Shown here in pieces: positions 6,102 through 49,692 of a stretch of 64,000 nucleotides of DNA. Within the stretch, counting starts at the first letter, position 1; every line of letters begins with the position of its first letter. The DNA is from Dictyostelium discoideum. Its lineage: Eukaryota. The DNA is taken from contig CM000154.2 of the NCBI GenBank assembly GCA_000004695.1, forward strand, positions 1,792,001-1,856,000. The letters are read 5' to 3'. Below the pieces are notes generated by a model, which searched no databases, was not told the origin of the DNA, and was given only the letters and a program-made list of their open reading frames with translations. The translations under genes and the position numbers were made by a program.

Positions 6102-6191
6102 TTTTTACTTTTTTTTTTTTTAATGATGGGGTAATTATTTTTTTTTTTTGATATTTAAAGAATAAAAAAAAAAAAATAAAAAAAGGTTCTG

Positions 6192-6226
<35 letters not shown>

Positions 6227-6453
6227 TTGTGATTAGATAAAAAAAAAAAAAAAATTTTATTTATTTATTTGAATTCACCAGATTAAACACTATTTTTTAA
6301 TTTTTAATTTTTTTTTTTTTTTTTTGGAAAGAAATTTATTAATTTATTTTTTTATTTATTTTTTTTTTTTTGGGAAAGAAAAATTTTTTTTTTTTTTTTT
6401 TTTTAAAAAAAAAAGATATATACATATTAGAAAATAAGAATTTGGTTATTTTA

Positions 6454-8291: not shown

Positions 8292-8596
8292 TTTGATATT
8301 TTTATTTATTTATTTATTTATTTATTTTATTTACAAAATTTTCGAACAATTTATTATTTGTTTATTTATTTATTTATTTTTTTTTTTAAAAAAGAGAAAT
8401 AAATTTTATAAAAAAAAAAAAATTATCACACACAATGAATTTATTGAAAAATAAAAAAAATTCAAAAAATTTTAAAAAAAATATAAAAAAAAAAAAAAAA
8501 ACAAAAATAAAAAAAAAAAGATTAAAAAGTGGGAAAAACATTTCCAAAAATAAAAAAAAAAATGAAAAAACAAAGATTTTATTAATAAAACTAAAT

Positions 8597-8710
8597 TTAG
8601 TTTATTATTTTTATTATTTTTGGTTGTGGTAATTCCTTAACAAATATAAAAGTTGTATATAAACCTATAAAATAAAGAAATGATTAGTATTGATTTTAAT
8701 TTATTTTTTC

Positions 8711-8749
<39 letters not shown>

Positions 8750-9385
8750 AAAAATCAAAAAAAAACCTACCTATTAAATCTAATTGGTTTTGTTCAATCT
8801 TTTTAATTCCATTTATATATACACCAGATTGTTTTAATTTACTCTCATAATTCTTTTTATTTTCATCATAAAATTCTGATAAATTTGTTGCTTCTACTAA
8901 TGTTAAATTATATTTTTTACAAAGGCTATTATTAAAAAAAAAAAAAAAAAAAAAATTAAATTAGTTTTTTTTTTTTTTTTTCTATTTTTAATATTATTTT
9001 CTTTTTTAGAAAAATAAAAATAAAAATAATAATAATAATAATTACTTTAAAAATGAAGGAAAATGAACTAAATTTTCAGACAAATTTAATTCTGTTGGAA
9101 TGGTTAAATTATATTTACAACCGAAAAATGATTGAATTTCCGAATCAAAAGTGATATTAAATAAATTTGATTTAATGATTGGTAAACCAGAAGAAGAAGT
9201 TTCTTTTTGAGCTTTATACCAAAGTGCTGAAGAATCAGGCATCATACCAAAAAAAAAACCACCAACTTTTAACCTACTACTTGCATTCTTTATAAATTGT
9301 TCTGCTTGAGTCGGATCTGTAAATGAATTTTGTAAACCATCAAAACATGCAATCACATCAAATTGTGGTAATTTAGATATATTTA

Positions 9386-9419
<34 letters not shown>

Positions 9420-9794
9420 TATATTATTATTTGTACTATTATTTATATTATTATTTATATTATTATTTATATTATTATTATTATTGGGAATTGGTTGTAA
9501 AAATGATTCAATATTATCTTTATTTAAATCCATTGTAATGAAATCAGCTTCAAATGGTTCATTCTTTGCTTGCCATTTATTTTTAGATTCTGTTGCATTA
9601 CTTTTTGATGATTCAAAACAATAATACCTTTTTATTTTCGCACGTTCCCATTTTCCTGTATCTAAACCAATTGCACTATAAATCTCTGCCGCTGTATCAT
9701 TCTCTTCAACCAATTCTGTTATTAATATAGTTTTCACCCATGCTTGATATGCTTTAAATTGCCACACTGATGTTTTTTGAGGCAAAAAATTCAT
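8597..9794 (-). CDS. mRNA cap (guanine-N7) methyltransferase-like protein (RNMT/Abd1 family), divergent. Exons 9794..9046, 8925..8771 and 8664..8597.
   Basis: ORF 9042..9923 read from the ATG at 9794. It aligns to the RNMT catalytic domain: ADFITMDLNKD ~ AEFITADSSKE, VIACFDGLQ, KVGGFFFGMMPDS ~ SPGGYFIGTTPNS, FGCKYNL ~ FGCKYDF. Donor AA|gtaatt at 9045 with acceptor tag|CC gives FPSFLNLCKKYNLTLVEATNLSEFYDENKK ~ [29 protein letters not shown]. Donor G|gtaggt at 8770 with acceptor tatag|GT gives GLYTTFIFVKEL ~ SIYLVFAFEKQ, then a stop. The SAM motif I is atypical (AIGLDTGKW instead of VLDLGCGKGGD). Confidence 0.7.
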
Positions 9795-15473: not shown

Positions 15474-15810
15474 TATATTTTTAAAAAAAAATAAAAAAAA
15501 TAATAATAATTAACAAATAATAAAAAAATAAATAAATAAATAAATAAATGAAGAATTTATAAATATATATATTTTTTTATTATGATATTATTATAATGAT
15601 TTTATTTTTATTTCTATTTTTATTTTTATTATTGATATTGATATTGATATTATAATTAATTGTTTTGAATAATAAATAAAAAAAAATAAAAAAAAAAACT
15701 AATTTTAAAAGAAATTAAATATAAAAAATAAAATAAAATAAAATTATATTAATTGTAAAAAATTAGTTATTATAGCTATATTATTTTTACAGATAATTAA
15801 TTATTATTAT

Positions 15811-15861
<51 letters not shown>

Positions 15862-16478
15862 CTTATTATGGTTTTTATTCAATTTATTTAAAATAATTTT
15901 ATAGATAGGGAAAGAAAAAAAAAAAAACTATACGTGTAAAAAAAAATAAACAAATTTTATATTTACTATCCACAACAATGAACATTGATCTTTTAGATCG
16001 ACTATAAAAAAAAAACAAAAAAAAAAATATAAAATATTTTAAAACACAAATTACAACATATCACGATAACAATGACTCTTTGAAAATGGTGAAATAAATA
16101 ATAAAATAGCAATAGTAATTGTAATATAATATTGATAACTTACCTGTCTTAATAATCTTGATGTTGTTAAACTATCAGATGTAAATTCGTCCATTCCTTT
16201 AATTTCCTTTTATGATGTATATTATATATATATATATAAATATATAATACTTTAAATTTATACGCTAATATTACAATTTTTAAAAAATAAAAAAAGTAAA
16301 AAAAAATAAAAAAATAAAATTAAACAATGGACTTTGTGGGGGTGTTTTAAAATTATTAAAAAATTTAAAAAAAAAAATAAAATAAAATAAAATAAAATAA
16401 AATGAAATAATTGTGTGTGTGTTTTTTATTTGTTGAATAAGGTGGAAAAAAAAATTTTTTTTTTTTCAATTTTTAAAA

Positions 16479-16519
<41 letters not shown>

Positions 16520-16570
16520 AATTAAATTAAATTTAAATTATTTTAATTAGATGGGTTTTTACTTATTTTT

Positions 16571-16603
<33 letters not shown>

Positions 16604-16799
16604 GGCAATGAAGACGTTTCGGTTTTCATTGAAAAATTTTCATATGATTAATTTATTTAATTATGATTTTGATTGTGATTATGTGATAATGATGATGACA
16701 TTACATACCACCAATTTTTTATTTTTTTTTTTTTTATTTTTAATTTTATTTTTTTTTTTTTTATTATTATTTTTTTTTTTTTATGGGTTGAATAAACTT

Positions 16800-16949
16800 T
16801 TATTTTTTTGATGTCTCTTTTTGTAATTTTTCTAAATATTCCTTTTCTTGATTTTCCCAATATTCCATGTATGATTGTTTATTACTATAAATATAATATT
16901 TCAAATATCTATCAAATTTTCTCTAGAGTAAAATGAATAATTAATAAAT

Positions 16950-16981
<32 letters not shown>

Positions 16982-17275
16982 GTTATTTTATTTAAAACTT
17001 ACATCATTTACTTTTACACATTCATGAAATTTATTGGCTTCTTCAAAACAAAAATATGTGTGGAAAAATGATAGTTTTTTTTTACATTCTTCATATTCTA
17101 TTTTTAAATCATAACATGATGCTTCAACCTGAAACTTTTTTTCTCCACTTTTTAAATTTTTTATATCTTTTGAAACTTGATCAAACTCCTCTGGATATAA
17201 ATTGATAAAATCTTTATAATAATCTGTGAATGAAAATTTTGGTTCTTTGAATCTATATTTATCGTTTTCTGTCAT
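16800..17275 (-). CDS. Twin Cx9C (CHCH-fold) small mitochondrial-type protein, possibly NDUFB7/B18-like (131 aa). Exons 17275..17003 and 16922..16800.
   Basis: ORF 16988..17275 contains two C-x9-C motifs (CYDLKIEYEEC, CFEEANKFHEC). A perfect GAT|gtaagt donor at 17002 and acceptor ctctag|AGA at 16923 extend it in frame to ...RKFDRYLKYYIYSNKQSYMEYWENQEKEYLEKLQKETSKK*. This resembles the post-CHCH basic helix of NDUFB7. Confidence 0.6.
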
Positions 17276-17902
17276 TGTGTTATTTAAAAAAAAAAAAAAT
17301 AAAATAAAAAAAAAAAAATAAAAAATAAAAAAAAAAATTCTGAAAAAAAAAAATAAAAAAAAATAAAAAAATTAAAAAAAAAAAAATAAAATATTTGGTA
17401 ATTATATATATTTTAAAACCCTTCAATTATTACCCTTTTTTGTGTTCAAGAAAAAATTTCCTAAAAAAAATTTCAAAAAAAAAAAAAAAATAAAAATAAA
17501 AATAAAAAATAAATTACCAACAAATATTTTTTTTCATAATTTTTTTTTTTTTTTTTTTCGGAATCATAAACAAAATTAAATTATTAATCAAATAAAAAAA
17601 GATAATAATAATAATAATAAAAAAAAAATAAAAAAAAATTAAATTAAAAAAAATAAAAATAAAAATAAAGAAAAATAAAAAAAAAAAATAAAAAAAAAAA
17701 TTAAATTAAAAAAAATTAATAAAGGGTTTGTATTAAATTTAGCTTTTTTTGAAAAAATCTACAAATATCGTATTTTGTTGATTGAAAATCAAAGAAAAGT
17801 TTTCTTTTAAATTACATTTTTTTTTTTTTTTTTTTTTTTATTTTTATTTTTATTTTTTATTTTTGCACCGATCTTTTCCACAAAACAAAAAAAAAAAAAG
17901 GG

Positions 17903-18002
17903 NNNNNNNNNNNNNNNNNNNNNNNNNNNNNNNNNNNNNNNNNNNNNNNNNNNNNNNNNNNNNNNNNNNNNNNNNNNNNNNNNNNNNNNNNNNNNNNNNN
18001 NN
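17903..18002. other. Assembly gap (100 N) flanked by poly-A/T
   Basis: Run of N characters. Spurious ORFs 17782..18078 and 17857..18042 run through it. Confidence 0.98.
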
Positions 18003-18186
18003 AAAAAAAAAAAAAAAAAAAAAAAAAAGGTTTAGATTCCAATCACCCCTAAAAATAAAATGGAAAAAAAAGCGATGATAGAATTGATTATAATAATAAG
18101 AATCTATTTTTTAGAGAAAAAAAAAAAATAAAAAAATAAATAAAAAAATAAAATAAAATAAAAATAATTTAAATAGGTTTTTCTTT

Positions 18187-18189
<3 letters not shown>

Positions 18190-18219
<30 letters not shown>
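18190..18219. repeat. (CA)15 dinucleotide repeat
   Basis: Directly visible. It lies upstream of the RBR E3 gene together with a (GA/GAAA)-rich tract at 18384..18434 and a (TA)n at 18435..18452. Confidence 0.95.
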
Positions 18220-18220
<1 letters not shown>

Positions 18221-18484
18221 TTTTTTTTTTTCTTTCTTTTTTTCTTTTTTTATATTTTGTTTTTTATTTTTTTTTTTCACACACACATTTTTTTTTTCAA
18301 AAAAAAAAGACACAATAAAAAAAAAAAAAATTTTGTTGCTAATAAAAAATCAAAATTTAAAATTTATATAGATAATATATATAGAGAGAGAAAGAGAAAG
18401 AGAAAGAGAAAGAGAGAAAGAGAGAGAGAAAGAGATATATATATATATATATTTTAGTAAAATATTTAATTTTTCACAATAAAA

Positions 18485-21046
18485 ATGTTTTTGAAAATCA
18501 AAAAAATTTTAAAAACAAGTAATAATGAAAACTCTATAGATAATGATAATAGTAGTAGTAGTAACATTAAAAAGAAAAAGAGTGATAAAAAAAATAAAAA
18601 TAGTAATAATAGTAATATTAATGACATTACAACTTCACCTATCATAACAAATAATAAAAGATCAGACAGTGATTTTAATGAACAAGCTCTTATTAATAAA
18701 TCACGTTCGTCTTCAGATATCGAATCATCTGATGCTATAGTAGAAAATGAAGATATTATTCAACCAGTTTTAACAACAACTACAACAACCTCATCATCAT
18801 CATCATCATCAACAGCATCACCAATAACAAATGAAAAATCTTCAAATAGCCCACAATTAAATAGAAATAAATCTTTCTTAGGTTCTGTAGTTTTAAATAT
18901 TAAAAAGAAGAGTTCATCAAAATCTAATGATAACAATAGTAATAATAATAATAATAATAAATCACAACAAGCAATTAATAGAAAAAGTTATCAAAAAGAT
19001 GATAATAATAATAATAATAGTAGTAGTAATGAAGGATCACCACAATCACAAATTAGTAATGAAGAGATACAATCCAATGATTCAATTGATAATGAAGAAT
19101 TAAATAATGAAAATTGTGATTCTGATGAAGAGGAGCAGCAAGACAATAGTTCATACGACGATGATGATGATGAAGATGGAGAATATGATGAAGATAATTC
19201 AGATGATGATGATGCATATGTTTCATTTAAAGATTTGGATGAAACTAATACAAAACCAGTTAAAAGTTTTAATTGTTTATCACCAAATCAATTAGTGGAA
19301 CAACAAGAAAAAGAAATTAAAGATATTGCTGAACTATTATCAATACCAACTTCTTCTGCAAATACATTATTAAAACATTTCAATTGGAAGAGAGAGGAAT
19401 TAATTTTAAAATATTTTGAATCACCAAAAGAAATTTGTAAAGAATTAGGTATTGAATATAATCCAATATCAAATAATAATAATAATAATTTTATTAATAA
19501 TAATAATATTCAACAATGGTCACCATCATCATCTCCACAATTATTTTCATGTGCTAATAATAATATAAATTCAACAACTACTACAACTACAACTACTACT
19601 TCAACAACAACAACAACAACAACAACTACACCAACAATTTCATGTTCAATTTGTGGTGAAGAGGATGAAAGTTTAACAGAATTTACATGGGCAAAATGTA
19701 AACATTCATTTTGTAATGATTGTTGGGCAAATTATTTAACATTAAAAATCAATGAAGGTGAAGCAACTATTAGATGTCCATTCTATAAATGTAAAGCAGT
19801 AGTTGATGATCAAATTATAAAGAGATTGATAGCACCATTTGTTTATGAAAAGTATCAAATTTTCTCAACAAAGAAATTCATTCAACAAAATAAACAACTT
19901 CGTTATTGTCCAACACCAGGTTGTGACAATGCAATTACATTGGTTAGTGATGGTGAGATTAGTAGTATTTTAAATAGTGTTGGTGGTGGTGGTGTGAGTG
20001 GTGGTGATCTTGATGATCAAGATCCAAATTGTATTTTTAATAAAAACACTGGTAATAATAACATTAGTGTTCAATGTTCATGTGGTTTCAAATTTTGTTT
20101 CAAATGTCATCGTGGTAGTCATGCACCTGCATCATGTGAACAAATGTCAATGTGGGAACAGAAATGCTCGGATGAGAGTGAAACTAGTCATTGGAAAATT
20201 GCAAATTGTAAACAGTGTCCAAAATGTACAGTCTCTGTTGAAAAGAATGGTGGTTGTATGCATGTAGTTTGTAGTCAATGTAAATATGAATGGTGTTGGA
20301 TGTGTACTCACAATTGGAAAGGTCATAATGATTTCTATGTTTGTAATCGTTTTGAAAAAGAAAAAGAAAAAGAAAGAAAATTAAATAATAAATTAAAAAG
20401 TAGTAGTGGTAGTACTGGTAGTAGTAGTAATAATAATAATAGTGGTAGTGGTAGTGGTGTTGGTGATGATGATAATAGTAGTAGTAGTCACCCTAGTAAA
20501 TTTAAATTATTATTATTTAATAGTAATAAATCAAAAATAAAAAAATCAAGAGAATCAATTGAAGAAGAACAAAAAAGAACAAATAGATTAGAATTGGAGA
20601 GATATTTATATTATTATGAAAAGTATATAAATCATGGTAATATTCAAAAATTGGAGAAAGCAATTAAAGAAGAGGCACAAATTAAAATGCAAGAATTGGA
20701 GAAAGCAAATTCAACTCGGGCTGAAGTAAAATACATTGAAAAGGGTGTTGATCAATTATTAGATTGTAGAAATATTTTAAAGTATACCTATATCTATGCT
20801 TTCTTTTCTTTTGCTGATCAAAATAATCAACGTGTTGTCACTGCCAAAGAATTATTCGAATTCCTTCAAGATGATTTAGAAAAAACAATGGAAAAATTAA
20901 CTGAACAAATGGAAGATGTTATGAAATCTCATGTAAATCTTGATACTTGGCATCGTTTAGATGTAATGAATCAAATTACACTTTTAAAAACTAAAACTGA
21001 TGGTTTATTAAATGCTGTATTAAAAGATTCATTATTTGAATTATAA
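18485..21046 (+). CDS. Ariadne-type RBR E3 ubiquitin ligase (RING1-IBR-RING2 plus Ariadne domain), 853 aa, single exon
   Basis: Continuous ORF. RING1 is CSICGEEDESLTEFTWAKCKHSFCNDCW. The IBR is CPTPGCDNAI...CSCGFKFCFKCHRGSHAPASC. RING2 carries the catalytic Cys (CKQCPKCTVSVEKNGGCMHVVCSQCKYEWCWMC). A C-terminal helical Ariadne domain follows. The N-terminal 380 aa are Ser/Asn/Asp-rich low complexity. Confidence 0.88.
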   Translation: MFLKIKKILKTSNNENSIDNDNSSSSNIKKKKSDKKNKNSNNSNINDITTSPIITNNKRSDSDFNEQALINKSRSSSDIESSDAIVENEDIIQPVLTTTTTTSSSSSSSTASPITNEKSSNSPQLNRNKSFLGSVVLNIKKKSSSKSNDNNSNNNNNNKSQQAINRKSYQKDDNNNNNSSSNEGSPQSQISNEEIQSNDSIDNEELNNENCDSDEEEQQDNSSYDDDDDEDGEYDEDNSDDDDAYVSFKDLDETNTKPVKSFNCLSPNQLVEQQEKEIKDIAELLSIPTSSANTLLKHFNWKREELILKYFESPKEICKELGIEYNPISNNNNNNFINNNNIQQWSPSSSPQLFSCANNNINSTTTTTTTTTSTTTTTTTTTPTISCSICGEEDESLTEFTWAKCKHSFCNDCWANYLTLKINEGEATIRCPFYKCKAVVDDQIIKRLIAPFVYEKYQIFSTKKFIQQNKQLRYCPTPGCDNAITLVSDGEISSILNSVGGGGVSGGDLDDQDPNCIFNKNTGNNNISVQCSCGFKFCFKCHRGSHAPASCEQMSMWEQKCSDESETSHWKIANCKQCPKCTVSVEKNGGCMHVVCSQCKYEWCWMCTHNWKGHNDFYVCNRFEKEKEKERKLNNKLKSSSGSTGSSSNNNNSGSGSGVGDDDNSSSSHPSKFKLLLFNSNKSKIKKSRESIEEEQKRTNRLELERYLYYYEKYINHGNIQKLEKAIKEEAQIKMQELEKANSTRAEVKYIEKGVDQLLDCRNILKYTYIYAFFSFADQNNQRVVTAKELFEFLQDDLEKTMEKLTEQMEDVMKSHVNLDTWHRLDVMNQITLLKTKTDGLLNAVLKDSLFEL

Positions 21047-21357
21047 AAAAAGAAAAAAAAAAAAATCAAAAAAAAACAAATCAAATCAAATTAAATCAAA
21101 TCAAATCAAATCAAAAATATATATCTATATTTTACATAATAAATTATTATTTAAAAGCTACTAGAGTTTTATATTAGTTAAACTCAAGTTTGTAATTGTA
21201 TACTATATTTAACTATTATTTTATTTTTCCTTTTTTTTTTTTTCCAAGTTTTTGAAATTTTAACTTTTTTTATTTGGTTAATTTCCCTTTTATTTTTAAA
21301 GGAATCAATCTAATTTGAACAATAATAAAACCAAAATGATTTTTATAATTATTTAAT

Positions 21358-21407
<50 letters not shown>

Positions 21408-21614
21408 CATTTAATTTAATTTTGGAATTTTTGCTAAAAGTTGAACTATTAAAAAATCATTTACATGAAATTTGGCAGTGGTTTTTAATTTATTTTATTT
21501 TATTTTTTTTTTTTTAAGAAAAAACAAATTTGGGAGCTTTTATGAATATTTTTTTTTTTTTTTTTTTTTTTTTAATTATTTTCATTTTTTATTTTTTTAA
21601 TTGTTTTTAATGAA

Positions 21615-22219
21615 ATGGATACAGCATCAATATCATCAACATCATCAAATTCAAAATCATCAAAAGAACAAATTAAATACACATTTACAGATTTTGATAA
21701 TGATATAAAGAATGAAATTAATGAACTTTATTCATATTCAGAGTTATCAATATTAAAGAAATCTAATATATCGAATCAATTCTATCATGATTTACACGAA
21801 TGTATGTATGCTCCTTTTTATTTTCATTTTTCTTTATTATATATATTGCATTATATATATATATATATTTAAATATTCATATCATATTTATGTATAATTA
21901 AAATCAATTGTTTTTTTTTTTATTTATTTTTTAATTTCAGATACTTCAAAAAATAAATGGAGAGATTTAACAGATATTGAAAAAATAGATTATCTTCAAC
22001 ATTTAATTGGATTCTTTGAATTATCAATGAAAGGACAAGATAATTATAATAGATATTTATTAAAATCTAGATTCATATGGTATATAGCGCAAGGTGTAAG
22101 AGATGAAACACATGATAGAAAAGATCAACTACATCAATCAAAATTAAATTGTATATTATTAAGAGAAATTAATGCATTACCAATAATTTTAAAAACTTTA
22201 GTATTATCTTCTCAGTATG

Positions 22220-22291
<72 letters not shown>

Positions 22292-24948
22292 ATAATTATA
22301 ATCATTATGCATATTATATCTAATTACAAATAACTATTTAGAATTTCAAATGAAACATTAAGAAATCAACAACAACAGCAACAGCAGCAACAGCAGCAAC
22401 AGCAACAACAACAACAACAACAACAGCAACAAAATGAAAATGAGGGTAGTGGAGAAGGAGGAACAAATTTTACAACAACAACGACGACAACAACAACAAC
22501 AACAACAGCTAATACATTCATAAGTCATGGTAAAAGGAATAATATAATAAAGAACAATAGTGGAAGTGTTAGTGGTGTAATTAAAAATATAAATTCAAAT
22601 GGTACACTATCATCATCAATGAAAGTAAATGTAAAAAGAGCTGACCTTTTAATGAGCATATTATTAGATATCATCTATTTAATCATTATAAATAATAAAG
22701 ATGATGAATTATTTAAAGAAGAAATTTGTAAGTGGTGACCCCCCCCCCCCCCCCTCCCCCTATATATAAATATTTGATTATTTGTTATTAATATTTTTAA
22801 AATATAGTTGAATCATTAGAAGGATGTAATAATAATAATAATAATAATAATAATTATAATAATAATATTTTAGGTAAAAATAATAATAATGGTACAAATT
22901 GTGATAATCCAAATTTAATATCAATTATACTTCAATTATTAAGTGAATTTAATGAAATTGATGGTAATTTATATCCAATTAAAAAGATATTAATGGTACT
23001 TTGGAAATCATTAACCATTTTTATGGGTGGATTAGAGGATTTGGATAGATTGAAACAAGAGAGATTGGATAATGTTGGTTACAAAAAAGGTACTCCAAAA
23101 ACTAGGTCCTATGATATTTCAAATTTCATTAAATCAACACAACGTTATCATAGTCAATTAAAATCAAATTCAGTTTTACATAAAGTGAACACTCATTATT
23201 TAGGTACACCCAAAGAGTATAAAGATGTTGATGTATTTAGGTTACCTTTATCCCTATCGGATTCATTATCAGTCTTACAAACTAATCTATATCCACCTGA
23301 AAAAGTTAGAAAAGAAATTGGCATCAATTATTATAGTTTTAATAATAATGATACAATTACACCTCATACTCAATCTGATTATTTCTATAATACTAGTAAT
23401 ATTTCTTCATCAAAAAAACAAATTAAACCTAGAATTTTAATTGATAATCCTTCAAATTTTGAAAGATTTTATGTAAGTTTTATTTTATTTTATATTTTTC
23501 TAAAAAATATTTATTAATTTTTTTTTTTTTTTAAAAATAGTGTATGAATGTATCAAACTTTTCAAAAATTGTAATTATATTATTAAAGATATTATTAGCA
23601 GCAACACCTGTTGTAAAGAATTATACGGGACCAATTAATTTAATTGCAGAGATTGTAATAGATCAATCATCACCAGGTTCTTCTGCATCTTTAGTTGAAA
23701 CTATGCAATCTGCTATTGACTTTTTAAGACATAAAGAAATCATTTCAAAATCAACACTTGGTATATTATTATTAATTATTAAACATTCTAAATTTAATCG
23801 TATGTATTATTAAAATATTAAAATTAAAATAATGTTTATTTTATTAATTCTAAATTTTTTTTTTTTTTTATTTTTATTTTTTTTGATTAATAGAACATTT
23901 ACAATTTGAATATTTATCAAAGATTATGTATGAATCAAATGCATTGGTTTTATTATATAAATGTTTAAATCATGAATCAGTTGAAAAGTATTTATTTTCA
24001 CAAAATTATTTAAATAGTGAAGAGTATTTCAATGAAGAATCATTACCATCATCATCTGCAGCATCACCACCACCACCACCAATATTTCAACCATTAAATT
24101 GTAGTGGTAGTAGTATCAATAGTATTAGTAGTGGTGGTGCAGGTTGTGAAGGTGGTGGTGCTAATCCACCACCAGTGCAATTATTTGAAAATTATAAAAA
24201 TTTATTTAGTACAATAACAAGTTTAAAATTAATTCAAAAAGTTATGAAACATCATCCATCAAGAATTTCTTCTTTATCTGCTTCAAAATCTGCTGTATGT
24301 TATTTTATATATATATATATTATACTTTATTTTTATTTATTAAATTTAACATTTTAATATTTATAAATTATATTCTAGAATATTTTAAAAAAATATTGTT
24401 CAATTAATCATCCAATGATTAGATTATATAGTTTAAAAGTTATAAAGAATTTAGTACCATATCAAACAAAGAAATGGAAACAAATTAATATGAGAATTAT
24501 ATCAGATATTTATTTAGAAGTACCAATTCATATTAATGATAATTGGTTATTTAGTCATAATAGTGCAATCAATAATAATAATAATAATAGTAACAATAAC
24601 AATAATAATAATAATAATAATAGTACAAATAATGATAATGGTTTAACTGATGAACATGAAGTTACACTTCAAGAGAAAGTTGAAGAATATCATAGAGTAA
24701 ATTATGAACAATGGTATACAAATGATGGTTTAGATATGTGTTATAAAAATGATCATTCAATGGGTATTGGTATTTTTGATGACTTATTAAATTCATTACA
24801 ATTAACAACAGAAGAAAAACAAGCTATAGAAAATGATAGATTAGCTTACATTGACAAAGATGAAGGTTCCTCATTAATCTTTATGAATGATGCTTTAGAA
24901 GATGAATTATTATTTAATAAATGGAATATCCAAAAACCAAAATTTTAA
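21615..24948 (+). CDS. STRIP/FAM40/Far11 homolog (striatin-interacting protein, N1221 + DUF3402). Seven exons: 21615..21801, 21941..22214, 22342..22727, 22808..23472, 23541..23799, 23894..24294, 24379..24948. Total 2742 nt, 913 aa.
   Basis: Joins ORFs 21615.., 22027.., 22993.., 23544.., 23926.. and 24415.. through GT(A/T)(A/T)GT donors and TAG/CAG acceptors. All phases agree and the total is a multiple of 3. Colinear with human STRIP1: ELYSYSE~ELYSYTE, NKWRDLTD~KKWTELDT, IWYIAQGV~ILYVAQGT, KKILMVLWKSLTIFMGGLEDL~KKVLLLLWKTVLCTLGGFEEL, ILLKILLAATP~ALLKILLAAAP, LQFEYLSKIM~YQFEYMAQHL, KSANILKKYCSINHPMIRLYSLK~KSAPILKRALKVKQAMMQLYVLK. Confidence 0.82.
22225..22288. repeat. (TA)n of about 32 units inside STRIP intron 2
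   Basis: Directly visible, immediately after the CA|gtatgt donor. Confidence 0.95.
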
Positions 24949-25418
24949 AAAAAATATTAAAAAAAAAAAAAAACATAAATAAAATAAAGAAAAAGATTAA
25001 AATAATTAAAATCAAATAAAAATAAATAATTTTATCATCATAAAAAAAAAAAAAAAAAAAAAAAAATAAAATCTTGGTGCATAAAAAAAAAAATAAAAAT
25101 AATATATAAAATAAATATTAAAAAAAAGATTAAAATATAATTTAAGTCAAATAAAATTAAAAAAAAGATTAAAATTATTTTAATCAAAAAAAAAAAAAAA
25201 AAAAAAAAATCCTGGTGTTTAAAAAAAGAAAGAAGTTAAAATAAAAATACCCAGGATTGTTTTTTTTTTTAATAATTAATTTTTAAATTTTTGAAAAAAA
25301 AAAAAAAAGAGTGAAGGTAATTTTTTTTTTTTTTTTTTTTTTTTTTTAATCTTCTAATATAAAATTCTTAATAATTATAATAATAGTAATATTATAAAAT
25401 TAAAAAAATTAATTTAAA

Positions 25419-27164
25419 ATGAAAATTAATAAAAATTTATCAAATTATATTCAATCTTATTTAATTGAATATTTAATTGAATTTTTATTAGTAAATAAAA
25501 AATTAAAAAAAATAAATAAAAAAACATTATTAAAAAATCGAAATGAAATATTAGGTTATTCATTAGTATGTAAATATTGGTTAAATTCAATTAAAAAAAC
25601 AATAAAAAATTCATATAATTTATTTGATTTTGGAAATTATAATTCATCAATTAAAGAATGGTGGTTATTAAATATTTTAAAAAATGAAAATCAATTAGAT
25701 TGGTCACTTTTGGAAGATTTAAAAAATCAATATTACTATAATTCTATAGAAAATGATAAAAATGAAAACCAAAAAAATTATATTGATGAATATATAAATA
25801 AATTTAGTCAACAACAAATGGTGAGGATTTGGGGTAGAGAGGAAGGTTTACAACCATTTTCACCAGAATATTTAAATGAAACAACAAATGTTATTTATAA
25901 TATTGATATTGAATTTACAAATTCAGTTGATTCACCAATTATTCCATATTCATTATTACCAATTTCAAGTACAATTCCAAAAAGAAAGATTAAAACCAAT
26001 CAATTAAAAGTGATTGGTTATTCAAATGTAATGTTTCAAATGATAAGAGATTGTTTTCCAAAGAGATTAATAATTGAAAAACAACAAACTCATAATATGG
26101 GAAATGTTTGGTTACATCATAATTTTCATGAAAGAATTTTTAAAAAACAACCTCAATTAACCTCTATAATAATTGATATGAATGATTATATTGACCCATT
26201 TCAATTATCAAATATTCATAAACTTTCAAAATTACATACACTTTCATTTCATTTATCATGTCATACATTAATAAAACAATGTTATTTCTATTATGAAAAA
26301 AATTTAAATATAAAATATTCAAATAAACAATTTGAACTTTATAATGATGACTATGATGATGGTAATCAAAAACAACAACAAATTAGATATGATTTACCAT
26401 GCAAATGTAATGATGAATTTGATTATAGTTTAAATTTATTTGATGTTATATCAGATTTAAAAGCAATGGTAATTGGAATTTGTAAATCAAAATCATTAAG
26501 AAATTTAATAATTAAAAATAGATGTCATGGTAGATGTATTTGGGAAAATGATGTAATTGGTCAATTAAAGAAATTTCAACCAGAAATAAATGAAAATTAT
26601 ATTTTAACTCATTGTTTCAAAGATTTATTTATAAATTTAAAAAGTGTTGAATTTTTAAAATTAAAAGATTTCGATTTTCTAAATGAATTTTCACTTTCTG
26701 GTTTAATTGAAAATGAAGGAATAAATAAGATTTATTTTAAAAATTCTTTGATTTCAATTGACCAAATTCAATACCTTTTTGAAAATGTATTTTCAGGTCA
26801 AAATAAAGGAATTAAACATTTAACTATAAATTATGATTTAGTTAGTGATTTAAATAAGGGTAATAAAATTCATTCACAATTAAATCAATTAATAATCAAC
26901 TTTTTAAAGAATGATAATTCATCAAATTCAACCAATCTTTATAGTATTCAATATCCAATAGATATAAATCAAATTGATAATTTATTAGAAACTTTAAATA
27001 ATTATCAAACTAAAATCGTTGAATTCAATTTATTATATTTAAATCCATCAAAAATTTATTCAAAAAATATTAAATCTGATAATTTTAATTTATTAAAATT
27101 AAAAATTAATTCAAATTTAAATATTAATTCTAAAAGAATTAATTTAGTTAATAAATATTATTAA
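25419..27164 (+). CDS. Hypothetical Asn/Ile/Lys-rich protein (581 aa), single exon, no recognised domain
   Basis: Long uninterrupted ORF with Dictyostelium codon usage, which would be improbable by chance at about 20% GC. There is weak periodic L/I/N spacing in the C-terminal half (LxxLxLxxN-like). Confidence 0.55.
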   Translation: MKINKNLSNYIQSYLIEYLIEFLLVNKKLKKINKKTLLKNRNEILGYSLVCKYWLNSIKKTIKNSYNLFDFGNYNSSIKEWWLLNILKNENQLDWSLLEDLKNQYYYNSIENDKNENQKNYIDEYINKFSQQQMVRIWGREEGLQPFSPEYLNETTNVIYNIDIEFTNSVDSPIIPYSLLPISSTIPKRKIKTNQLKVIGYSNVMFQMIRDCFPKRLIIEKQQTHNMGNVWLHHNFHERIFKKQPQLTSIIIDMNDYIDPFQLSNIHKLSKLHTLSFHLSCHTLIKQCYFYYEKNLNIKYSNKQFELYNDDYDDGNQKQQQIRYDLPCKCNDEFDYSLNLFDVISDLKAMVIGICKSKSLRNLIIKNRCHGRCIWENDVIGQLKKFQPEINENYILTHCFKDLFINLKSVEFLKLKDFDFLNEFSLSGLIENEGINKIYFKNSLISIDQIQYLFENVFSGQNKGIKHLTINYDLVSDLNKGNKIHSQLNQLIINFLKNDNSSNSTNLYSIQYPIDINQIDNLLETLNNYQTKIVEFNLLYLNPSKIYSKNIKSDNFNLLKLKINSNLNINSKRINLVNKYY

Positions 27165-27502
27165 AAATAAAATAAAATAAAAAAATAAAATAAAATAAAA
27201 AAATAAAATAAAATTATTTTTAAAAAAAAGATTAAAAGAAAATTAAAAAAAAAAAATTTTTTTATTAGATTCTAAAAATAAAAAAAAAATATCAAAGCTG
27301 CCAGATATATATGTAATGATTATAAATATATAATATTTGTTGATTATAAATATATATGTGATAAATATTTAAAAGTTTTATAAAAAAAAAAAAATTGTTT
27401 TTGATATTATCTAAATAATGTAGAGTACACCATATTATTATTATTTTTGATAAAAAACAATAAGTTTGCATACTATTATAATACACTTAATAATTTGATT
27501 AT

Positions 27503-27592
27503 ATATAGATATTGATATAGATATTGATATAGATATTGATATAGATATTGATACTGATACTGATATTGATATTTATATTGATATTGTTAAAG
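27503..27592. repeat. Tandem (GATATT/GATATA/GATACT)n hexamer array of about 15 units
   Basis: atagatattgatatagatattgat...gatactgatactgatattgat, directly visible, in the 3' intergenic region between two convergent genes. Confidence 0.9.
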
Positions 27593-27613
27593 ACATTTTG
27601 ATATTTAATATTT

Positions 27614-28709
27614 TCAATTCAAATAATTATTGATTGTTTGTAAATAAGTTTGAAAATCTTGTCTAATTGGCATGAAATTTCCATCTGATAACTTTTCTTC
27701 TAGTAATATCTAATGGAATAGTTATAAGTATTTTTTTTTTTTTTTTTTATAAATTAAATATTTAATTTAATTTTACATACATGTTGAGATTCAATTAAAT
27801 TTGACTCGCTTAATGAAATTGAACCTTTTAATATACAGTGTTTATTTAAATTATAATAATCCCAAACTCTAACATTATCTTTTGAAATATTAAATAATTT
27901 ACATCCTCTCTATATTATTGATTTTTTTTTTTAATTAGTAAAAATAAAAATAAAATTAAAATTATAATTTTACAAACATTTTTAATGAAATCAATGGTAT
28001 CATTCTTTTGGCAATAAATTGTTTTTACATCTTTTAAATTTGAAGAACTTAATATGAATAGAGTTGTTGGTATTTTAAAATCAATTTCATTTCTTTTAAA
28101 TAATCTTGAAATTACTACTCTTGGAATTGATGGACCCCCACCATATTTATTAATAATAAATTCCCAAACTGATTTTGAAACTATTTGAAAATGTTCACCT
28201 CTAACAACACCTGGCAATAATGTTAATCTATCATTTAATAATATTTTTTCATTACTAATTGGTTTTAATTTATTATTATTATTATTATTATTATTAAAAT
28301 CACTATCGTCATCATCATCATCATCATCCTCATCCTCATTATTATTTTTATTATTTTTATTATTTGAAATGAAATCTACCCAATCTTTAATCCAATTAAT
28401 TTCAACTAAAAACCAAATATCACCAACTTTAAACTCTGATTGATTTGAATTGAATAATTGGTAAATTTTTAATTCTGAAATTCCAGAGTTTAAACTACTA
28501 CTTGGTACTTTTTGTTCATTAAATTTTTCAACTTCTTTTTTCTCATCTTGTAAACTATCAATTTCATTTTGTTTATCATTATTACTTTTATTGATGTCAT
28601 TATTATTATTTCTATTATTTCTATTTTTAGTAGTGATAACGGAATCATCATCATTATCAAAAGTTTGAACTGGACTTGGATTATTACTGTCAATTGATGG
28701 ATTGCACTG

Positions 28710-28799
<90 letters not shown>

Positions 28800-29695
28800 T
28801 TTGGTTGATTCATTAAAAATATATTTTACAGAGATTGATGGTTCGTTATCATAATTATAGTTATTTTTATTTTGAAAATTATTATTAAAATTAATATTAT
28901 TTAAATCCAATCCATTATTATTATCATTAATAAAACCACCATTAAAATTTAAACCATTATTAAAATTATTACCATTGTTTAATGCTTGTGATATTTCAAT
29001 TTGTGGATTATATATCATATAACCATTTGTTGAACTTGTTGTACTATTTATTTCTTTAATATTAAAATATTATTAATATGTTTAAAAAAAAAAAATAAAA
29101 AAATTAAAAAAAAAAAAAGGGGGGATGGAAATAACATATTAAGAAAATTTAGGGAAAAAAAATAATAAAAATAAAAAAGAAAAAAAAAATACAAACCATG
29201 AAAATCTAGACAATCTTCGCTAAGACTATCATCTTCATCACTATTTAATAATTCTGTATCGTCATCGATTTCATCTTGGTAAATAGAAATTTGTTGGTGG
29301 TAATTTTGATGTTGTTGTCCTTTATTGTGGTGGTGGTTATTATTATTAAAAAATAATTGATGTTGGTATTGTAATTGATTTGTATTTATAATATTGTTAC
29401 TGTTGCTATTTTTTGTATCTTCGTCATCACTAATATCAACAATTTCATTATGATAGCTATCTTGACTATTATTATATTCGATACTATTAAAGTTATAACC
29501 AAATTGGTTTATTGAATTACTATTATTTTTTAATTGGGAAAATAAACTAAATGTTTTCTTTGCACCAAAACTAAATTTACTAGTTAATGATGAACTTGAT
29601 GAATAATTAACATTTATATTATTATTATTCCCAATACTATCATTTATAAATTCAAATGGACTTGTAGATAGATTATCGAATTGGTCTTCTTCCAT
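27614..29695 (-). CDS. DUSP-UBL domain protein resembling the N-terminal module of USP4/11/15 but lacking a USP catalytic domain (599 aa). Exons 29695..29197, 29053..27978, 27909..27781 and 27709..27614.
   Basis: ORFs 29048..29695 and 27915..29018 plus two short 3' exons join via G|gtttgt...aaag|AA, AAT|gtttgt...tatag|AGA and CAT|gtatgt...attag|ATA. Phases agree and 1800 nt = 600 codons. The DUSP core (GDIWFLVEINWIKDWVDF, LNDRLTLLPGVVRGEHFQIVSKSVWEFIINKYGGGPSIPRVV) is followed by a UBL (DTIDFIKNRGCKLFNISKDNVRVWDYYN...HVILLEEKLSDGNF), colinear with USP15 residues ~1-230. Confidence 0.68.
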
Positions 29696-31524: not shown

Positions 31525-33749
31525 TAATAAACAATATTATGATATAGTGCACCAAAATATTTTGATATAGATTCATTAAGAAAAGATGGATTAGATAATT
31601 GGATATTTAGAGAAGAGAATATTAAAAATATAGTAGAAAGAGTTGATGAATTTTATATAGAAGAGATGGGATTAAACGATCAAATATCATCCATTAATTG
31701 TGAAGAGATTGCAAACGAAAATATCGATGAAATTATATTATTGATTGAAGCAATACTTGGAATGGCAATGGAATCTGAAAATAATGAAGCTGTAATTGAA
31801 AATATTTTATCTTTAGATCAAGATACTCAAAATGATTTAATGGTTGTTGTTGCAAAGGTACTACCTAATTTCACTATTTAAATTACTATAGTAATTAATA
31901 TATCAATATTTATTTTATACTCACTTTTTTTTTTTTTTTTTTTTATTATTTATTTATATTTAATATTTAGATTCAACAATCACATCAACCAAATACAGTA
32001 GATAATAGTAAATCATTTGATAAAGATGGATCAATTTTATCACAATCACCAAGTCAAAGTAATAATAGTATTAGTAATAATAATAATAATAATAATATAG
32101 ATAGTAGTAATATAAGTAAAAGTAATATTAGTAGTAATAATAATAATAATAATAGTAGTAATAATAATAAAGAAGAAATTTTAAATTTACAAAATGAAAT
32201 TGAAAAATTAAAAAGAGAGAAACAAGAGATTCAAAACGATTTAGATGAATCAAATATACAATTATCAAATGTAACTATGGATCGTGATAGAATTACAATT
32301 GATAAACAAAAGACAGAGGAAGTATGTTCAAGTTTACATGAATCAATCATTGGATTACAAAAACAATTGGATGAAACTATGGCACAAACCACAACAATGA
32401 ATGCATTGAATGATGAAACCTATAAAACTGAAATCAATGATCTTCATATGCAAGTGGAATCAAAGGAGAAACAATTATCCGAATTGAAAAAGAAAGTCGA
32501 TGAAGCCAATCGTTTAGCGAATGAAAATCGTTCATTACGTGATGAAATTGATATTTTAAGAGAGAAAGCTGCAAATGCTGAAGCAACTGAAGAGAAATTA
32601 AAAAAACATCAAAAGAAAATCGAAGAAATTGGCGATCTAAAAAAGAAAATCAAGGAACTTGAAGATCAAAATGATAGTTACATTCAACAAACTTTGGATC
32701 TTGAAGAACAACTCTCAAAGAATAACACCTATAGAACTCAAGCTGACTCTGGTAAACAACAAATCTCCTCACTAAAGATTGAATTGGCAAAATTGGAATT
32801 ATCTTTGAAATCCATTAAAGAGGATCGTGATAAATTATCTGAATCTTTAAATACCGTAGAGTTGGAACGTGATAGTTTACAATCTCAAGTTACTAACCTC
32901 AGAAATACAATCGATAATCAACAACAAGAATATGAAACCAAATTCGTTGATCTTCAATCTTCAATTAGTCTCAATAGTGGTGGTAGTGGTGGTTTAGGTG
33001 ATGAAGTCATTGATGGTTCAACCAAAGAAAGAATAGCTCGTTTAGAAAGAGATAACAAACGTTTAAAAGAAGTCGCTGAAAAAGCTTCTGAATTAGAAAA
33101 TCAATTAGAAGATGCCAATCAATCAAAAGAATTATTAACAATTCAAATTAAACAATTAGAAGAACAAAAACAACAATCAAATAATACTAATAATAATAAT
33201 AATAATAATAATATGGTCGATTCATCTGAAATTGAATCACTAAAACAACAATTAAAAGAAAAAGAAAAAGAAATTTCAACATTAAAGAGAAAACTCGAGG
33301 AATCTAATCTTAGTTTGGATGAAAATAGGAAACAATTGGTCGAATTATCACAAAGACCAACCACTCAATCACCAGGTGATATTGAAAAACTTGAAAATTA
33401 CGAAAATCTTCTCAAGGAAAATGATGGTTTAGAGGGTCGTTTAAGAGCTGCTCGTAACATCATTAAAGATCTTAGAGAAAAACATAAATCTTACTCAAAT
33501 CAAGAGACTCAATTGGCCACCAAAGATGAAGTCATCACCAAATTGGAAGGTTTGGTCAAAAAGAAGACTGATATCAACGAAGATTTAAGAAAACAACTCG
33601 AAGAAGGTAGAGAAGAATCTCAAAGAGAAATTAATTTAATGCTTTCAGCTTTCTTAAAGATTGGTTTAGAAATGGAACAAGTTAAAATTCAAAATATTTC
33701 AAGTTCAAAAGAACCAAGATCATTTTTAAATAAAAAAAGAGCTGATTAA
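30874..33749 (+). CDS. Hook-family microtubule-binding and coiled-coil protein. Exons 30874..30900, 31157..31245, 31548..31857 and 31971..33749. Total 2205 nt, 734 aa.
   Basis: Nine-codon first exon (MIETSFIKW|gtaaga), then acag|ATAAAT...CAAAT|gtatgt, then atag|TGCACC...GCAAAG|gtacta, then tttag|ATTCAA. The N-terminal domain is colinear with human HOOK1 (WLQTFN~WINSFK, DVKQLTSGVAMAQVLHQID~DLKELSNGTIFNEICCQIA, GDNWRIK~LDNWIFR, ELGRLLQLILGCAIN~EIILLIEAILGMAME). A long heptad coiled coil follows (ORF 32277..33749). Confidence 0.78.
31052..31152. repeat. (AATAT)n pentanucleotide repeat of about 20 units in Hook intron 1
   Basis: Directly visible. A second (TAA)n of about 27 units lies in intron 2 at 31441..31523. 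Confidence 0.9.
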
Positions 33750-47850: not shown

Positions 47851-49692
47851 TTAAATCAATGCATGAATTTTCTTAAGATCTTCAATTGAGAAAGCGGCAT
47901 ATCTTTCACACCACTCTTCACAATTCTTATTATAGTTGTTAACATCGTCACGATAGACACCAGCTTTAACAACATCAAGTGGATCATGTGGGTTTGGTGT
48001 GACAAGTAATTGGGATATACTTAACATAACTTTAGAAATTGTTAAAGCTGGACTCCAACTATCCTTTAAAATATCTAAACAAATATTACCATCATTATTA
48101 ATATTACAATGATAAATCTTTGTTAAAAATCTAATCTCTAAAATATGAAAAATTAAAAAATGAAGTTAGTATTTTTAAAATAATAATAATATTATAATAA
48201 ATTTTAAAAATATGAACATACTTGGAGCGGACATTGGATAATTATCTGGGAAATTTACAGATAATGCAAATAAACCTTTATGATATGGTGATTGTTGTGG
48301 GCCTTGCATAATAATTTTCCAAGCAACTATATTATTTTCATCCAAGAATAAAGTGAATTGTGAATAAGGACCATGGGATGAAATTTCTTCTTTAAAGTTT
48401 TTATATTCCTTGAAAACACGTCTACTTGCACCAGTAAACTTTGATTCTGCAGTTGAACTTGTATCAATTGTTTGTTTCAATTGAACATTTTGGAAAGCAG
48501 GTTCAACCTTACGTTCAATTGTTTTTTGATAAGTTCCACTGACTTTATTAAAATCAAGTTTTGTTTTAATATCCAATGAGAATGGTTTGAAATTATCACG
48601 AGCTGATAAAGATAACAAAGCTTCACGTTCAAATAATTCCACACCTTCTAATGACGAATCTGCAATGAAACAACTTCCACCTGTTGCCTGTGAAAATGAC
48701 GATAAACGCTCTCTACCATCTAAACCAATTGGAATTGAATCTAAAATGATATTATGTTTTTTCATGTATTGATAAACTGGATATGGGTCAAAGTTACTAT
48801 TATCTTCACCATCGGTTAAACAAAATACTCTAAGCATTGGATTAGACGATAATTTTAAACCACCAGTAGCAGCAGCATCGCAACTTTCTTTAAATTTAAC
48901 CAATGTTTCAGCAGCTAATTGAATTGCTTCAAATAATCTAGTTTTACATTGATTGGCAACAACTTCACCCAATTCAGTTGAGAAAGAATCGAAATTTCTT
49001 GTTAAATCAAATGTTAACTCTATTCTTTCACCAAATGTTACAAGTCCAACTGCAACTGGTACCTCTAATGATATTGCTTTATCAGTGAATGTTTGAAATA
49101 ATGTTTGTGCCAATTCAATTCTTGACATTTCAAGTTCACCTGGTACTCTACTACCTTTAAATGCTGCACTCTTCATTGATCCTGACAAATCCAATACAAT
49201 AACATCCAATTGTTTAATTTCTGATTCATATAATTCAACTTGTTTTTTAATTGGTTCTGTTGAGTTTAATGAATCTTTTTGTTGTTGTTGTTGTTGATTA
49301 TTATTATTATTGTTATTTAAATCAAGTTTATTTAATTGGGTGGAAATTAAATTTTCACCACTACTATTATCAGATGCTTGATTTGGTACAGATGTTGATG
49401 GTTCAATTGATGGTGGAGTTGTAGTTGATGTAGTTGTAGTTGTGGTTGTGGTTGTTGTATTGATATCAATTGAAGGATCAAATAATACTAGTTCTGAGGA
49501 ATCTAAAATATTCAACTCTTCTAAAGTATCCTCTTCAAATAATTCTGCATTTTGATATTCTAATTTATATTCTACATTTGTTGATAAATTTCCTCTTTTG
49601 ACAATTTCTTTAATAAATTCTTTAACGGTCAATGTTTTTTTAAATGGTACCCCAATCTTTTTATTTGGTGAAATTTGAATTGAAAGTGGCAT
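47851..49692 (-). CDS. UBL - vWA - ubiquitin-conjugating enzyme (UBC E2) fusion protein (584 aa). Exons 49692..48222 and 48137..47851.
   Basis: ORF 48175..49692 starts with a beta-grasp/UBL-like N-terminus and has a vWA domain with a MIDAS motif ([10 protein letters not shown] ... LTDGEDN). The UBC fold starts at [13 protein letters not shown]...[21 protein letters not shown]. Donor A|gtatgt at 48221 and acceptor ttttag|AG at 48138 add [55 protein letters not shown]..., which carries the catalytic Cys in the HxN...ICLDIL context, then the stop at 47851. Confidence 0.78.

Follow-up and report, generated by a model that had tools for sequence, protein, structure and literature searches.

Pseudo-deubiquitinases, such as those of the USP39/Sad1 and the USP53/54 type, are non-catalytic members of deubiquitinase (DUB) lineages that are kept for binding or scaffolding and preserve the fold of the ubiquitin-specific proteases (USPs) around a dead active site. 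The human enzymes USP4, USP11 and USP15 carry, in front of a linker and a catalytic domain with a Cys box, a His box and a ubiquitin-like (UBL) insert, an accessory module made up of a DUSP domain, a β-hairpin linker and a Ubiquitin_3-type UBL domain (structures 3JYU, 4MEM, 3T9L, 4A3O and 5CTR). What the DUSP domain does is still poorly understood, and DUSP domains have been stated to be “found exclusively in USPs” (Clerici et al. 2014). Here we describe a gene for a protein of 599 amino acids (aa), encoded in a 64-kb stretch of Dictyostelium discoideum chromosome 5 (contig CM000154.2, positions 1,792,001 to 1,856,000; hereinafter the window), which shares the DUSP, hairpin and UBL of USP4/11/15 both by sequence and by fold, and stops where these enzymes continue into the linker and the catalytic domain with its two boxes and insert. 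Unlike in the pseudo-DUBs, the whole catalytic domain is gone and the accessory module alone is left. We show that this stand-alone DUSP-UBL gene is conserved at a syntenic locus across several dictyostelids and is a paralog of a full-length dictyostelid USP, and we propose a role for it in the pathway of the latter.

A gene model that ends past the UBL domain

The four exons of the gene (Table 1) join in frame upon splicing of the window DNA into a reading frame closed by a TGA at 27616-27614, and its three introns of 143, 68 and 71 nucleotides (nt) are bounded by GT..AG and have a GC content of 7-13%, in a window that is itself AT-rich (14-29% GC). The initial annotation of the locus had arrived at the same four exons, length and stop codon, and these are corroborated by an independent gene call, in that the NCBI D. 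discoideum assembly GCA_054883475.1 contains identical DNA on which a 599-residue gene is annotated with exactly the same span. The open reading frames (ORFs) at 25419-27164 (+) and 18485-21046 (+) match DDB_G0288687 and DDB_G0288683 exactly; going by the +2 steps in the numbering of these neighbors, the dictyBase identifier of the gene is presumably DDB_G0288689, which is used here provisionally.

The central claim of the initial annotation, namely a DUSP-UBL module devoid of any deubiquitinase domain, stood up to all the searches that were directed at it. Pfam profiles matched DUSP (PF06337) and Ubiquitin_3 (PF14836) in the 599-aa protein and returned no match to UCH (PF00443), nor did a scan of further long ORFs in the window turn up a UCH domain. 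On the minus strand, the ORF fragments of the interval 15500-27720 gave no Pfam match at E<1, and with three catalytic domains from dictyostelid USPs as queries, tblastn was blank on both strands of the whole 64-kb window; as a positive control, the DUSP-UBL of the D. purpureum USP retrieved the window gene in the same type of search at E=1e-19. Likewise, a UCH domain was found neither by Pfam in any of the stand-alone orthologs described below nor by tblastn in any of their syntenic loci. Immediately past the stop codon, the 450 nt up to the 3′ end of the convergent neighboring gene are marked, just as first noted, by a tandem repeat (Table 1), and that neighbor takes up the DNA in which additional exons on the minus strand would need to be located.

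A contrasting interpretation would be that the gene model is an artefact, with the catalytic domain residing in distant exons or in a neighboring model to be merged with it. Such an error is a general risk in an AT-rich genome, and the Tieghemostelium lacteum ortholog does bear the label “peptidase C19 family protein”. Against it stand the convergent gene 450 nt downstream, the lack of UCH similarity in the 64-kb window and the syntenic loci, and the agreement of four independent annotations on the end point even as the downstream neighbors vary by species. Since the same end point recurs in four other dictyostelid genomes with differing downstream neighbors and no UCH domain, we take it to be genuine and regard a mis-spliced gene as effectively excluded. 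By its domains, the gene belongs to the DUSP and Ubiquitin_3 families and not to peptidase family C19; the T. lacteum protein (KYR02255.1), too, is without a peptidase domain, and its label, an annotation error exposed by this comparison, was probably transferred from a homolog.

Domain architecture and predicted structure

The DUSP assignment in the initial annotation holds at the level of profiles, with a PF06337 match far above the cut-off that covers positions 1-76 of the 77 in the profile (Table 1). The region coding for the UBL domain is interrupted by introns 2 (27910-27977) and 3 (27710-27780), and the protein ends 18 residues past that domain. The DUSP-UBL module thereby makes up the C-terminal 40% of the protein, behind about 355 mostly low-complexity residues. 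When PDB sequences were searched with phmmer, residues ~372-581 aligned continuously with residues 22-221 of USP15, and also with the DUSP-UBL structures of USP11 and USP4 (E~2e-8), in line with the correspondence to the USP15 N-terminus that had been proposed earlier.

Structure prediction points in the same direction. The AlphaFold model of the exon-2 piece (window 27978-28487, minus strand) has a predicted local distance difference test (pLDDT) score of 85.9, with low confidence only in an insert, and all 26 of its Foldseek matches in the PDB at E<0.05 are DUSP or DUSP-UBL structures of USP11, USP15 or USP4. This piece is thus predicted to adopt the DUSP fold, a helical bundle on a small β-sheet, as in PDB 1W6V. 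In the model of the Polysphondylium violaceum ortholog, residues 1-114 are mostly below a pLDDT of 50 and are followed by a helix and then by a DUSP-UBL above 90, which superposes on the crystal structures of USP4, USP11 and USP15 (3JYU, 4A3O, 5CTR) over ~210 columns at E-values of 8e-17 to 1e-13.

Besides what it lacks, the D. discoideum protein differs from the human USP4/11/15 modules in two additions: the ~355 disordered N-terminal residues with motifs of their own, and a 31-residue low-complexity insert in the DUSP domain. The latter is the long Asn/Asp-rich interruption that had been remarked upon at the outset; it sits in the loop between a helix and the GPI[SD]N strand, is modeled with low pLDDT and is missing in P. 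violaceum. Linking the DUSP and UBL domains is the string SRLFKRNE, which is equal in length to the β-hairpin 124-HGLFVKHC-131 of USP4 and preserves its Leu-Phe pair, with a Lys at the position of V128. Both the hairpin length and the Phe equivalent to USP4 F127 are common to this protein and USP4/15, and the Phe is retained in all the stand-alone orthologs, as opposed to V128, which is not. The protein closes with the 15-residue tail QDFQTYLQTINNYLN, which is identical in D. cf. discoideum, is conserved in 13 of its 15 residues in D. firmibasis and is specific to the D. discoideum group.

Stand-alone orthologs and their conservation

Orthologs were reached by synteny, starting from the orthologs of the hook gene, which is transcribed divergently from the DUSP-UBL gene, and moving to the adjoining divergent gene. 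Beside hook we thus recovered stand-alone DUSP-UBL genes in D. cf. discoideum (623 aa), D. firmibasis (751 aa, with the four-exon structure retained), P. violaceum (325 aa; A0A8J4PR03, with a DUSP domain on record) and T. lacteum (KYR02255.1, 475 aa, annotated with both DUSP and Ubiquitin_3; positions 8019-9603, minus strand, of locus L005). A word-indexed protein search with the DUSP-UBL region, either with or without the insert, gave no match even at E<=1, the index seemingly lacking the cluster of this protein. An exhaustive HMMER search of a protein library with the exon-2 piece, which produced 130 matches, placed the P. violaceum and T. lacteum orthologs on top (E=3e-25 and 4e-13, respectively), and additionally retrieved a dictyostelid protein of 351 aa from EukProt and a protein of 277 aa from Synstelium polycarpum.

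Pfam recognizes the DUSP domain in the orthologs (64-77 bits), with or without the UBL domain, and all of them finish within 30 aa past the UBL. The members of this group are divergent from hook, display the constant order of three N-terminal motifs (A, B and C; see below), DUSP and UBL, and have in common an intron in phase 1 after DF[HQ] and another in phase 0 before ILLEE. The genes on their downstream side vary from species to species. Between D. discoideum and D. cf. discoideum, the splice sites and the stop codon are conserved, and all the indels in exons are multiples of three, unlike those in introns; the D. cf. discoideum protein differs by several such in-frame changes in repeat length. 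The D. firmibasis protein is 152 aa longer and has much longer Asn runs, one of them of ~70 residues.

We then estimated the ratio of nonsynonymous to synonymous substitution rates (dN/dS) by the Nei-Gojobori method, comparing D. discoideum with D. firmibasis unless stated otherwise. It is 0.22 for the folded part comprising DUSP, hairpin and UBL (dS 0.41), 0.10 for residues 1-100 and 0.08 for the C-terminal tail, as against 0.44 for the DUSP loop insert, for which it reaches 1.27 in the comparison with D. cf. discoideum. These values are those of a functional protein in which the low-complexity spacers are neutral, and the insert, judged by these ratios and by its distribution, is a naturally variable, lineage-specific loop evolving close to neutrality.

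The same data bear on whether the gene is only a decaying remnant, i.e., a truncated USP duplicate without a function. It does resemble the 5′ fragment of a USP gene, and its Asn-rich low-complexity tracts are abundant and differ in length among species. Decay would not, however, be expected to leave an intact ORF, a stop position that is conserved in at least five species of two families, conserved splice sites, indels in exons that are in frame only, and dN/dS values of 0.22 for the folded domains and of 0.10 for the N-terminus. We accordingly consider the pseudogene interpretation to be close to refuted, and the gene to be under purifying selection.

Origin from the 5′ part of a full-length USP gene

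A separate full-length enzyme of the USP4/15 type, the existence of which the initial annotation had left to be looked for, is present in dictyostelids generally: the same HMMER search retrieved DUSP+UBL+UCH proteins from D. purpureum (F0ZWE8, 984 aa), T. lacteum (KYQ93108.1, 1101 aa), Acytostelium subglobosum (XP_012757630.1, 1165 aa) and Cavenderia fasciculata (F4PWQ3, 1393 aa). T. lacteum has the stand-alone gene in addition to the full-length enzyme. In a neighbor-joining tree of 206 DUSP-UBL columns, a distance-based method applied to short sequences, a clade with a bootstrap value of 96% unites the stand-alone proteins with the full-length USPs of dictyostelids, and human USP15 and the DUSP-UBLs of other eukaryotes fall outside it. 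Consistent with this, the stand-alone module is 33-39% identical to those of the dictyostelid full-length USPs and 25% identical to that of USP15.

The strongest evidence for the origin of the gene comes from mapping the introns onto the alignment. In D. discoideum, introns 2 (between IKN and RGC) and 3 (between SQH and ILLEE), both in phase 0, coincide in alignment column and phase with the only two introns that the USP gene of D. purpureum has (between KE and RAC, and between NQL and ILLDE). The shared positions and phases indicate that the stand-alone gene arose as a partial duplicate, at the DNA level, of the 5′ part of the USP gene and not as a retrocopy, making this a clear case of a new gene from partial duplication with shared introns as the evidence. 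The dictyostelid full-length USPs hence offer the closest version of the module, along with the two intron positions within the UBL region (in D. purpureum) and an S-F-E-x-[IV] string near the N-terminus. They differ in possessing a UCH domain with an insert (Pfam E~1e-73) and in their genomic location, which is adjacent to a GT10 glycosyltransferase gene instead of hook.

Two further observations on the full-length genes are worth recording. The GT10 gene (570 aa) follows the USP gene in both D. purpureum and T. lacteum, a conserved synteny of its own. In C. fasciculata, F4PWQ3 has an N-terminal RhoGEF/DH domain (Pfam E=3e-32), which could be either a real RhoGEF-DUB fusion or the result of two merged gene models.

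Conserved motifs in the disordered N-terminus

Three short motifs (A, B and C; Table 1) recur in constant order across species, all within the disordered N-terminus. Motif A is conserved in D. firmibasis, T. lacteum and the library protein P0029, with a variant form in P. violaceum. With its F-x-x-[ILV] core after Ser or acidic residues, it resembles the LC3-interacting region/Atg8-interacting motif (LIR/AIM), and might serve as such. Strings that resemble motif A (“SFELV”, “SFVEI” and “TFEEI”) are found near the N-termini of the full-length dictyostelid USPs. Motif B is present in D. discoideum, D. firmibasis, P. violaceum and T. lacteum, and is fused with motif A in P0029. The consensus of SUMO-interacting motifs (SIMs) is a [VIL][VIL]x[VIL] core flanked by Ser or acidic residues; a pattern of this type is conserved across the orthologs (EIVDISDDED, EIIDLSDNEDDD and EIIDLSDYEESD), so that motif B, with its hydrophobic core and Ser/acidic tail, is a candidate SIM. 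Motif C lies at the end of exon 1 and is split by the phase-1 intron 1, the position of which is shared with P. violaceum and T. lacteum.

Potential function in the pathway of a paralogous USP

Taken as a whole, these observations show that the 5′ part of a USP gene coding for the N-terminal motif region, the DUSP and the UBL was duplicated at the DNA level and gained a stop codon directly past the UBL. The resulting non-catalytic paralog has since been kept by purifying selection, in at least the Dictyosteliaceae and the Raperosteliaceae, beside the full-length enzyme. We believe, with moderate probability, that it acts as an adaptor or competitor in the pathway of the paralogous USP. As for partner binding and a regulatory effect, we infer that the folded DUSP-UBL with its hairpin linker would share its partner or partners with the corresponding module of the full-length paralog, that the disordered N-terminus would bind a second partner via the LIR-like, the SIM-like (with its acidic tail) and the DFH motifs, and that the protein would thereby titrate or redirect the targeting factors of the USP without removing ubiquitin by itself. 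The role of a regulator or decoy of a USP suggested in the initial annotation is a reasonable hypothesis. Precedents for such binding come from the human enzymes: SART3 binds the DUSP-UBL hairpin of USP4 and USP15 at 0.2-0.9 µM, with its HAT-C region contacted by F127 and V128, of which F127 is critical (Park et al. 2016, PMC4914101), and short peptide motifs are bound by the DUSP-UBL of USP11.

Several points weigh against this proposal. The full-length paralog has been found in four other dictyostelids and is unconfirmed for D. discoideum itself. The monophyly of the stand-alone group is recovered with only 42% bootstrap support. The search by hook synteny turned up no DUSP gene in C. fasciculata, A. 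subglobosum and H. album, and no stand-alone protein from Cavenderia, Acytostelium or Heterostelium was among the 130 library matches, from which it appears that the family may be limited to a part of Dictyostelia. LIR-like and SIM-like patterns are short and frequent by chance. The searchable literature holds no expression, interaction or phenotype data on this gene. Finally, V128 and the USP4 residues R40, F51 and Y136 are conserved neither in the stand-alone proteins nor in the dictyostelid full-length USPs; as these functional residues of the vertebrate proteins are also lost from the full-length enzymes, the details of the vertebrate interactions may not transfer.

We weighed two other functions. 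First, the free DUSP-UBL could be a trans-acting activator, which attaches to a USP, be it the paralog or another one, at the catalytic domain or the insert and speeds the release of ubiquitin as a separately encoded activating subunit. There is a biochemical foundation for this, as the catalytic domain of USP4 works about nine times faster when the DUSP-Ubl of USP4 is supplied in trans, provided that the insert is present (Clerici et al. 2014), and the stand-alone module is nearest, at 33-39% identity, to that of the dictyostelids’ own USPs. However, the effect in trans took ~150 µM DUSP-Ubl, implying a weak affinity, the dictyostelid full-length USPs already have a DUSP-UBL in cis, and R40, F51 and Y136, mutation of which lowers the activation of USP4, are not conserved here; we hence deem this function unlikely. 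The set of USP4 trans-activation residues (M24, R40, F51, E134 and Y136) was also considered as a discriminator between mechanisms and set aside, being unconserved even in the dictyostelid full-length USPs.

Second, the DUSP-UBL might have been co-opted as a generic binding module of a USP-independent adaptor, which uses its SIM-like and LIR-like motifs in, e.g., the SUMO or Atg8 pathways, with no link to deubiquitination. In this regard, constraint on the protein is strongest over residues 1-100 (dN/dS 0.10), where motifs A and B are located, and DUSP domains do occur in non-USP architectures elsewhere, such as 2xDUSP+RING, 2xDUSP and the short DUSP-UBL gene of Pelomyxa. The motif-A-like string in the N-termini of the full-length USPs suggests shared rather than new partners, though, and the binding capacities in question are putative, being predicted from patterns. 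We regard this alternative as rather unlikely.

A further and rather improbable hypothesis is that the protein is a dedicated, separately encoded regulatory subunit of the paralogous USP, which would either compete with the enzyme for a targeting factor, be it an E3 ligase or a HAT protein akin to SART3, or dock on the insert of the enzyme, with the SIM-like and LIR-like motifs coupling this control to SUMO or Atg8 signaling. If true, it would provide the first example from nature of an accessory module of a DUB set free as a trans-regulator. A conserved and naturally isolated DUSP-UBL in a genetically tractable organism, with the full-length parent enzyme in the same clade, makes it possible to examine cleanly how the module acts in isolation from the catalytic domain, be it by competition for targeting factors, activation in trans or service as an independent adaptor.

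DUSP domains outside USPs

The premise of the initial annotation that DUSP has been described only as an accessory domain of USPs agrees with the literature (Clerici et al. 2014) and not with the sequence databases, in which the P. violaceum ortholog and other non-USP architectures are on record. Indeed, UniProt already labels the former (A0A8J4PR03) as “DUSP domain-containing protein”. A literature search found no paper on a stand-alone DUSP-UBL, nor on DDB_G0288689 or Q54IL0, and the provisional identifier DDB_G0288689 is not listed in the published D. discoideum DUB inventory. Hence, stand-alone DUSP-UBL proteins are present in databases under automatic names and uncharacterized; they do not constitute a new category.

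Other non-USP proteins share with the dictyostelid group the presence of DUSP without UCH. Pelomyxa schiedti KAH3763362.1 (positions 6001-6932, plus strand, of locus L010) is a protein of 230 aa with only DUSP and UBL, the next gene being convergent, and tblastn detected no UCH at this locus; a second DUSP-UBL copy of 226 aa lies on another contig of the same organism. As it falls outside the dictyostelid stand-alone clade, the Pelomyxa gene may have an independent origin. A 345-aa protein with 2xDUSP and a C-terminal RING finger is found in three near-identical copies in Logan assemblies, and a complete 2xDUSP ORF comes from EukProt. The proteins from Pelomyxa and Ceratiomyxa and those with 2xDUSP lie outside the dictyostelid stand-alone clade and show none of the motifs that the latter has at the N-terminus. 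Each is probably either an independent invention or an unverified fragment, and all are uncharacterized. We also noticed a 583-aa “DUSP domain-containing protein [bacterium]” from a metagenome-assembled genome, for which eukaryotic contamination is possible.

Genomic neighborhood and side observations

The features of the gene and its immediate flanks are collected in Table 1.

Table 1. Features of the DUSP-UBL gene and its flanks (window positions)
Feature	Position	Strand	Details	Basis
DUSP-UBL gene, whole	27614..29695	-	four exons 29695-29197, 29053-27978, 27909-27781, 27709-27614; 599 aa	
Motif A, LSTSPFEFI	29645..29671	-	aa 9-17; S-[TS]-S-P-F-E-F-[ILV]	ortholog alignment
Motif B, EIVDISDDED	29417..29446	-	aa 84-93; E-I-[IV]-D-[LI]-S-D-x-E-[DE]	ortholog alignment
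Motif C	29197..29206	-	aa 164-167; D-F-[HQ]-[ED]; end of exon 1	ortholog alignment
DUSP domain	28110..28424	-	aa 377-481	PF06337, 62.8 bits vs cut-off 29.3, E=4e-17
Asn/Asp-rich low-complexity insert	28272..28364	-	aa 397-427; 31 residues	alignment, low pLDDT
β-hairpin linker, SRLFKRNE	28086..28109	-	aa 482-489	alignment to USP4
USP4/11/15-type UBL domain	27671..28046	-	aa 503-581	Ubiquitin_3 PF14836, 37 bits vs 24, E=3e-9
C-terminal tail, QDFQTYLQTINNYLN	27617..27661	-	aa 585-599, then stop	ortholog alignment
ATATTG/ATATAGATATTG hexamer/dodecamer microsatellite	27503..27597	.	(ATATTG)n; 3′ flank, non-coding	repeat search
DDB_G0288687	25419..27164	+	convergent neighbor; F-box protein, 581 aa, single exon	exact match
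hook, largest exon	32277..33749	+	divergently transcribed neighbor; synteny anchor for orthologs	synteny

Exon 2 of the gene harbors a perfect (AAT)30 poly-Asn tract at window positions 28710-28799. The gene order RBR, STRIP (DUF3402), F-box protein, DUSP-UBL and hook is kept in D. cf. discoideum and D. firmibasis; the first of these, DDB_G0288683 (18485-21046, +), codes for an Ariadne-type RBR E3 ligase and is ~7 kb from the DUSP-UBL gene. As the RBR, STRIP and F-box genes are absent at the P. violaceum and T. lacteum loci, their nearness to the DUSP-UBL gene is probably coincidental. Elsewhere in the window (48175-49692, minus strand), an ORF of 505 aa has a weakly ubiquitin-like N-terminus, followed by a VWA domain at aa 164-348 and, at its C-terminal end, by the first part of a ubiquitin-conjugating enzyme (E2; UQ_con) core (aa 440-492), which presumably carries on in the next exon; UBL-VWA-E2 is an unusual architecture.

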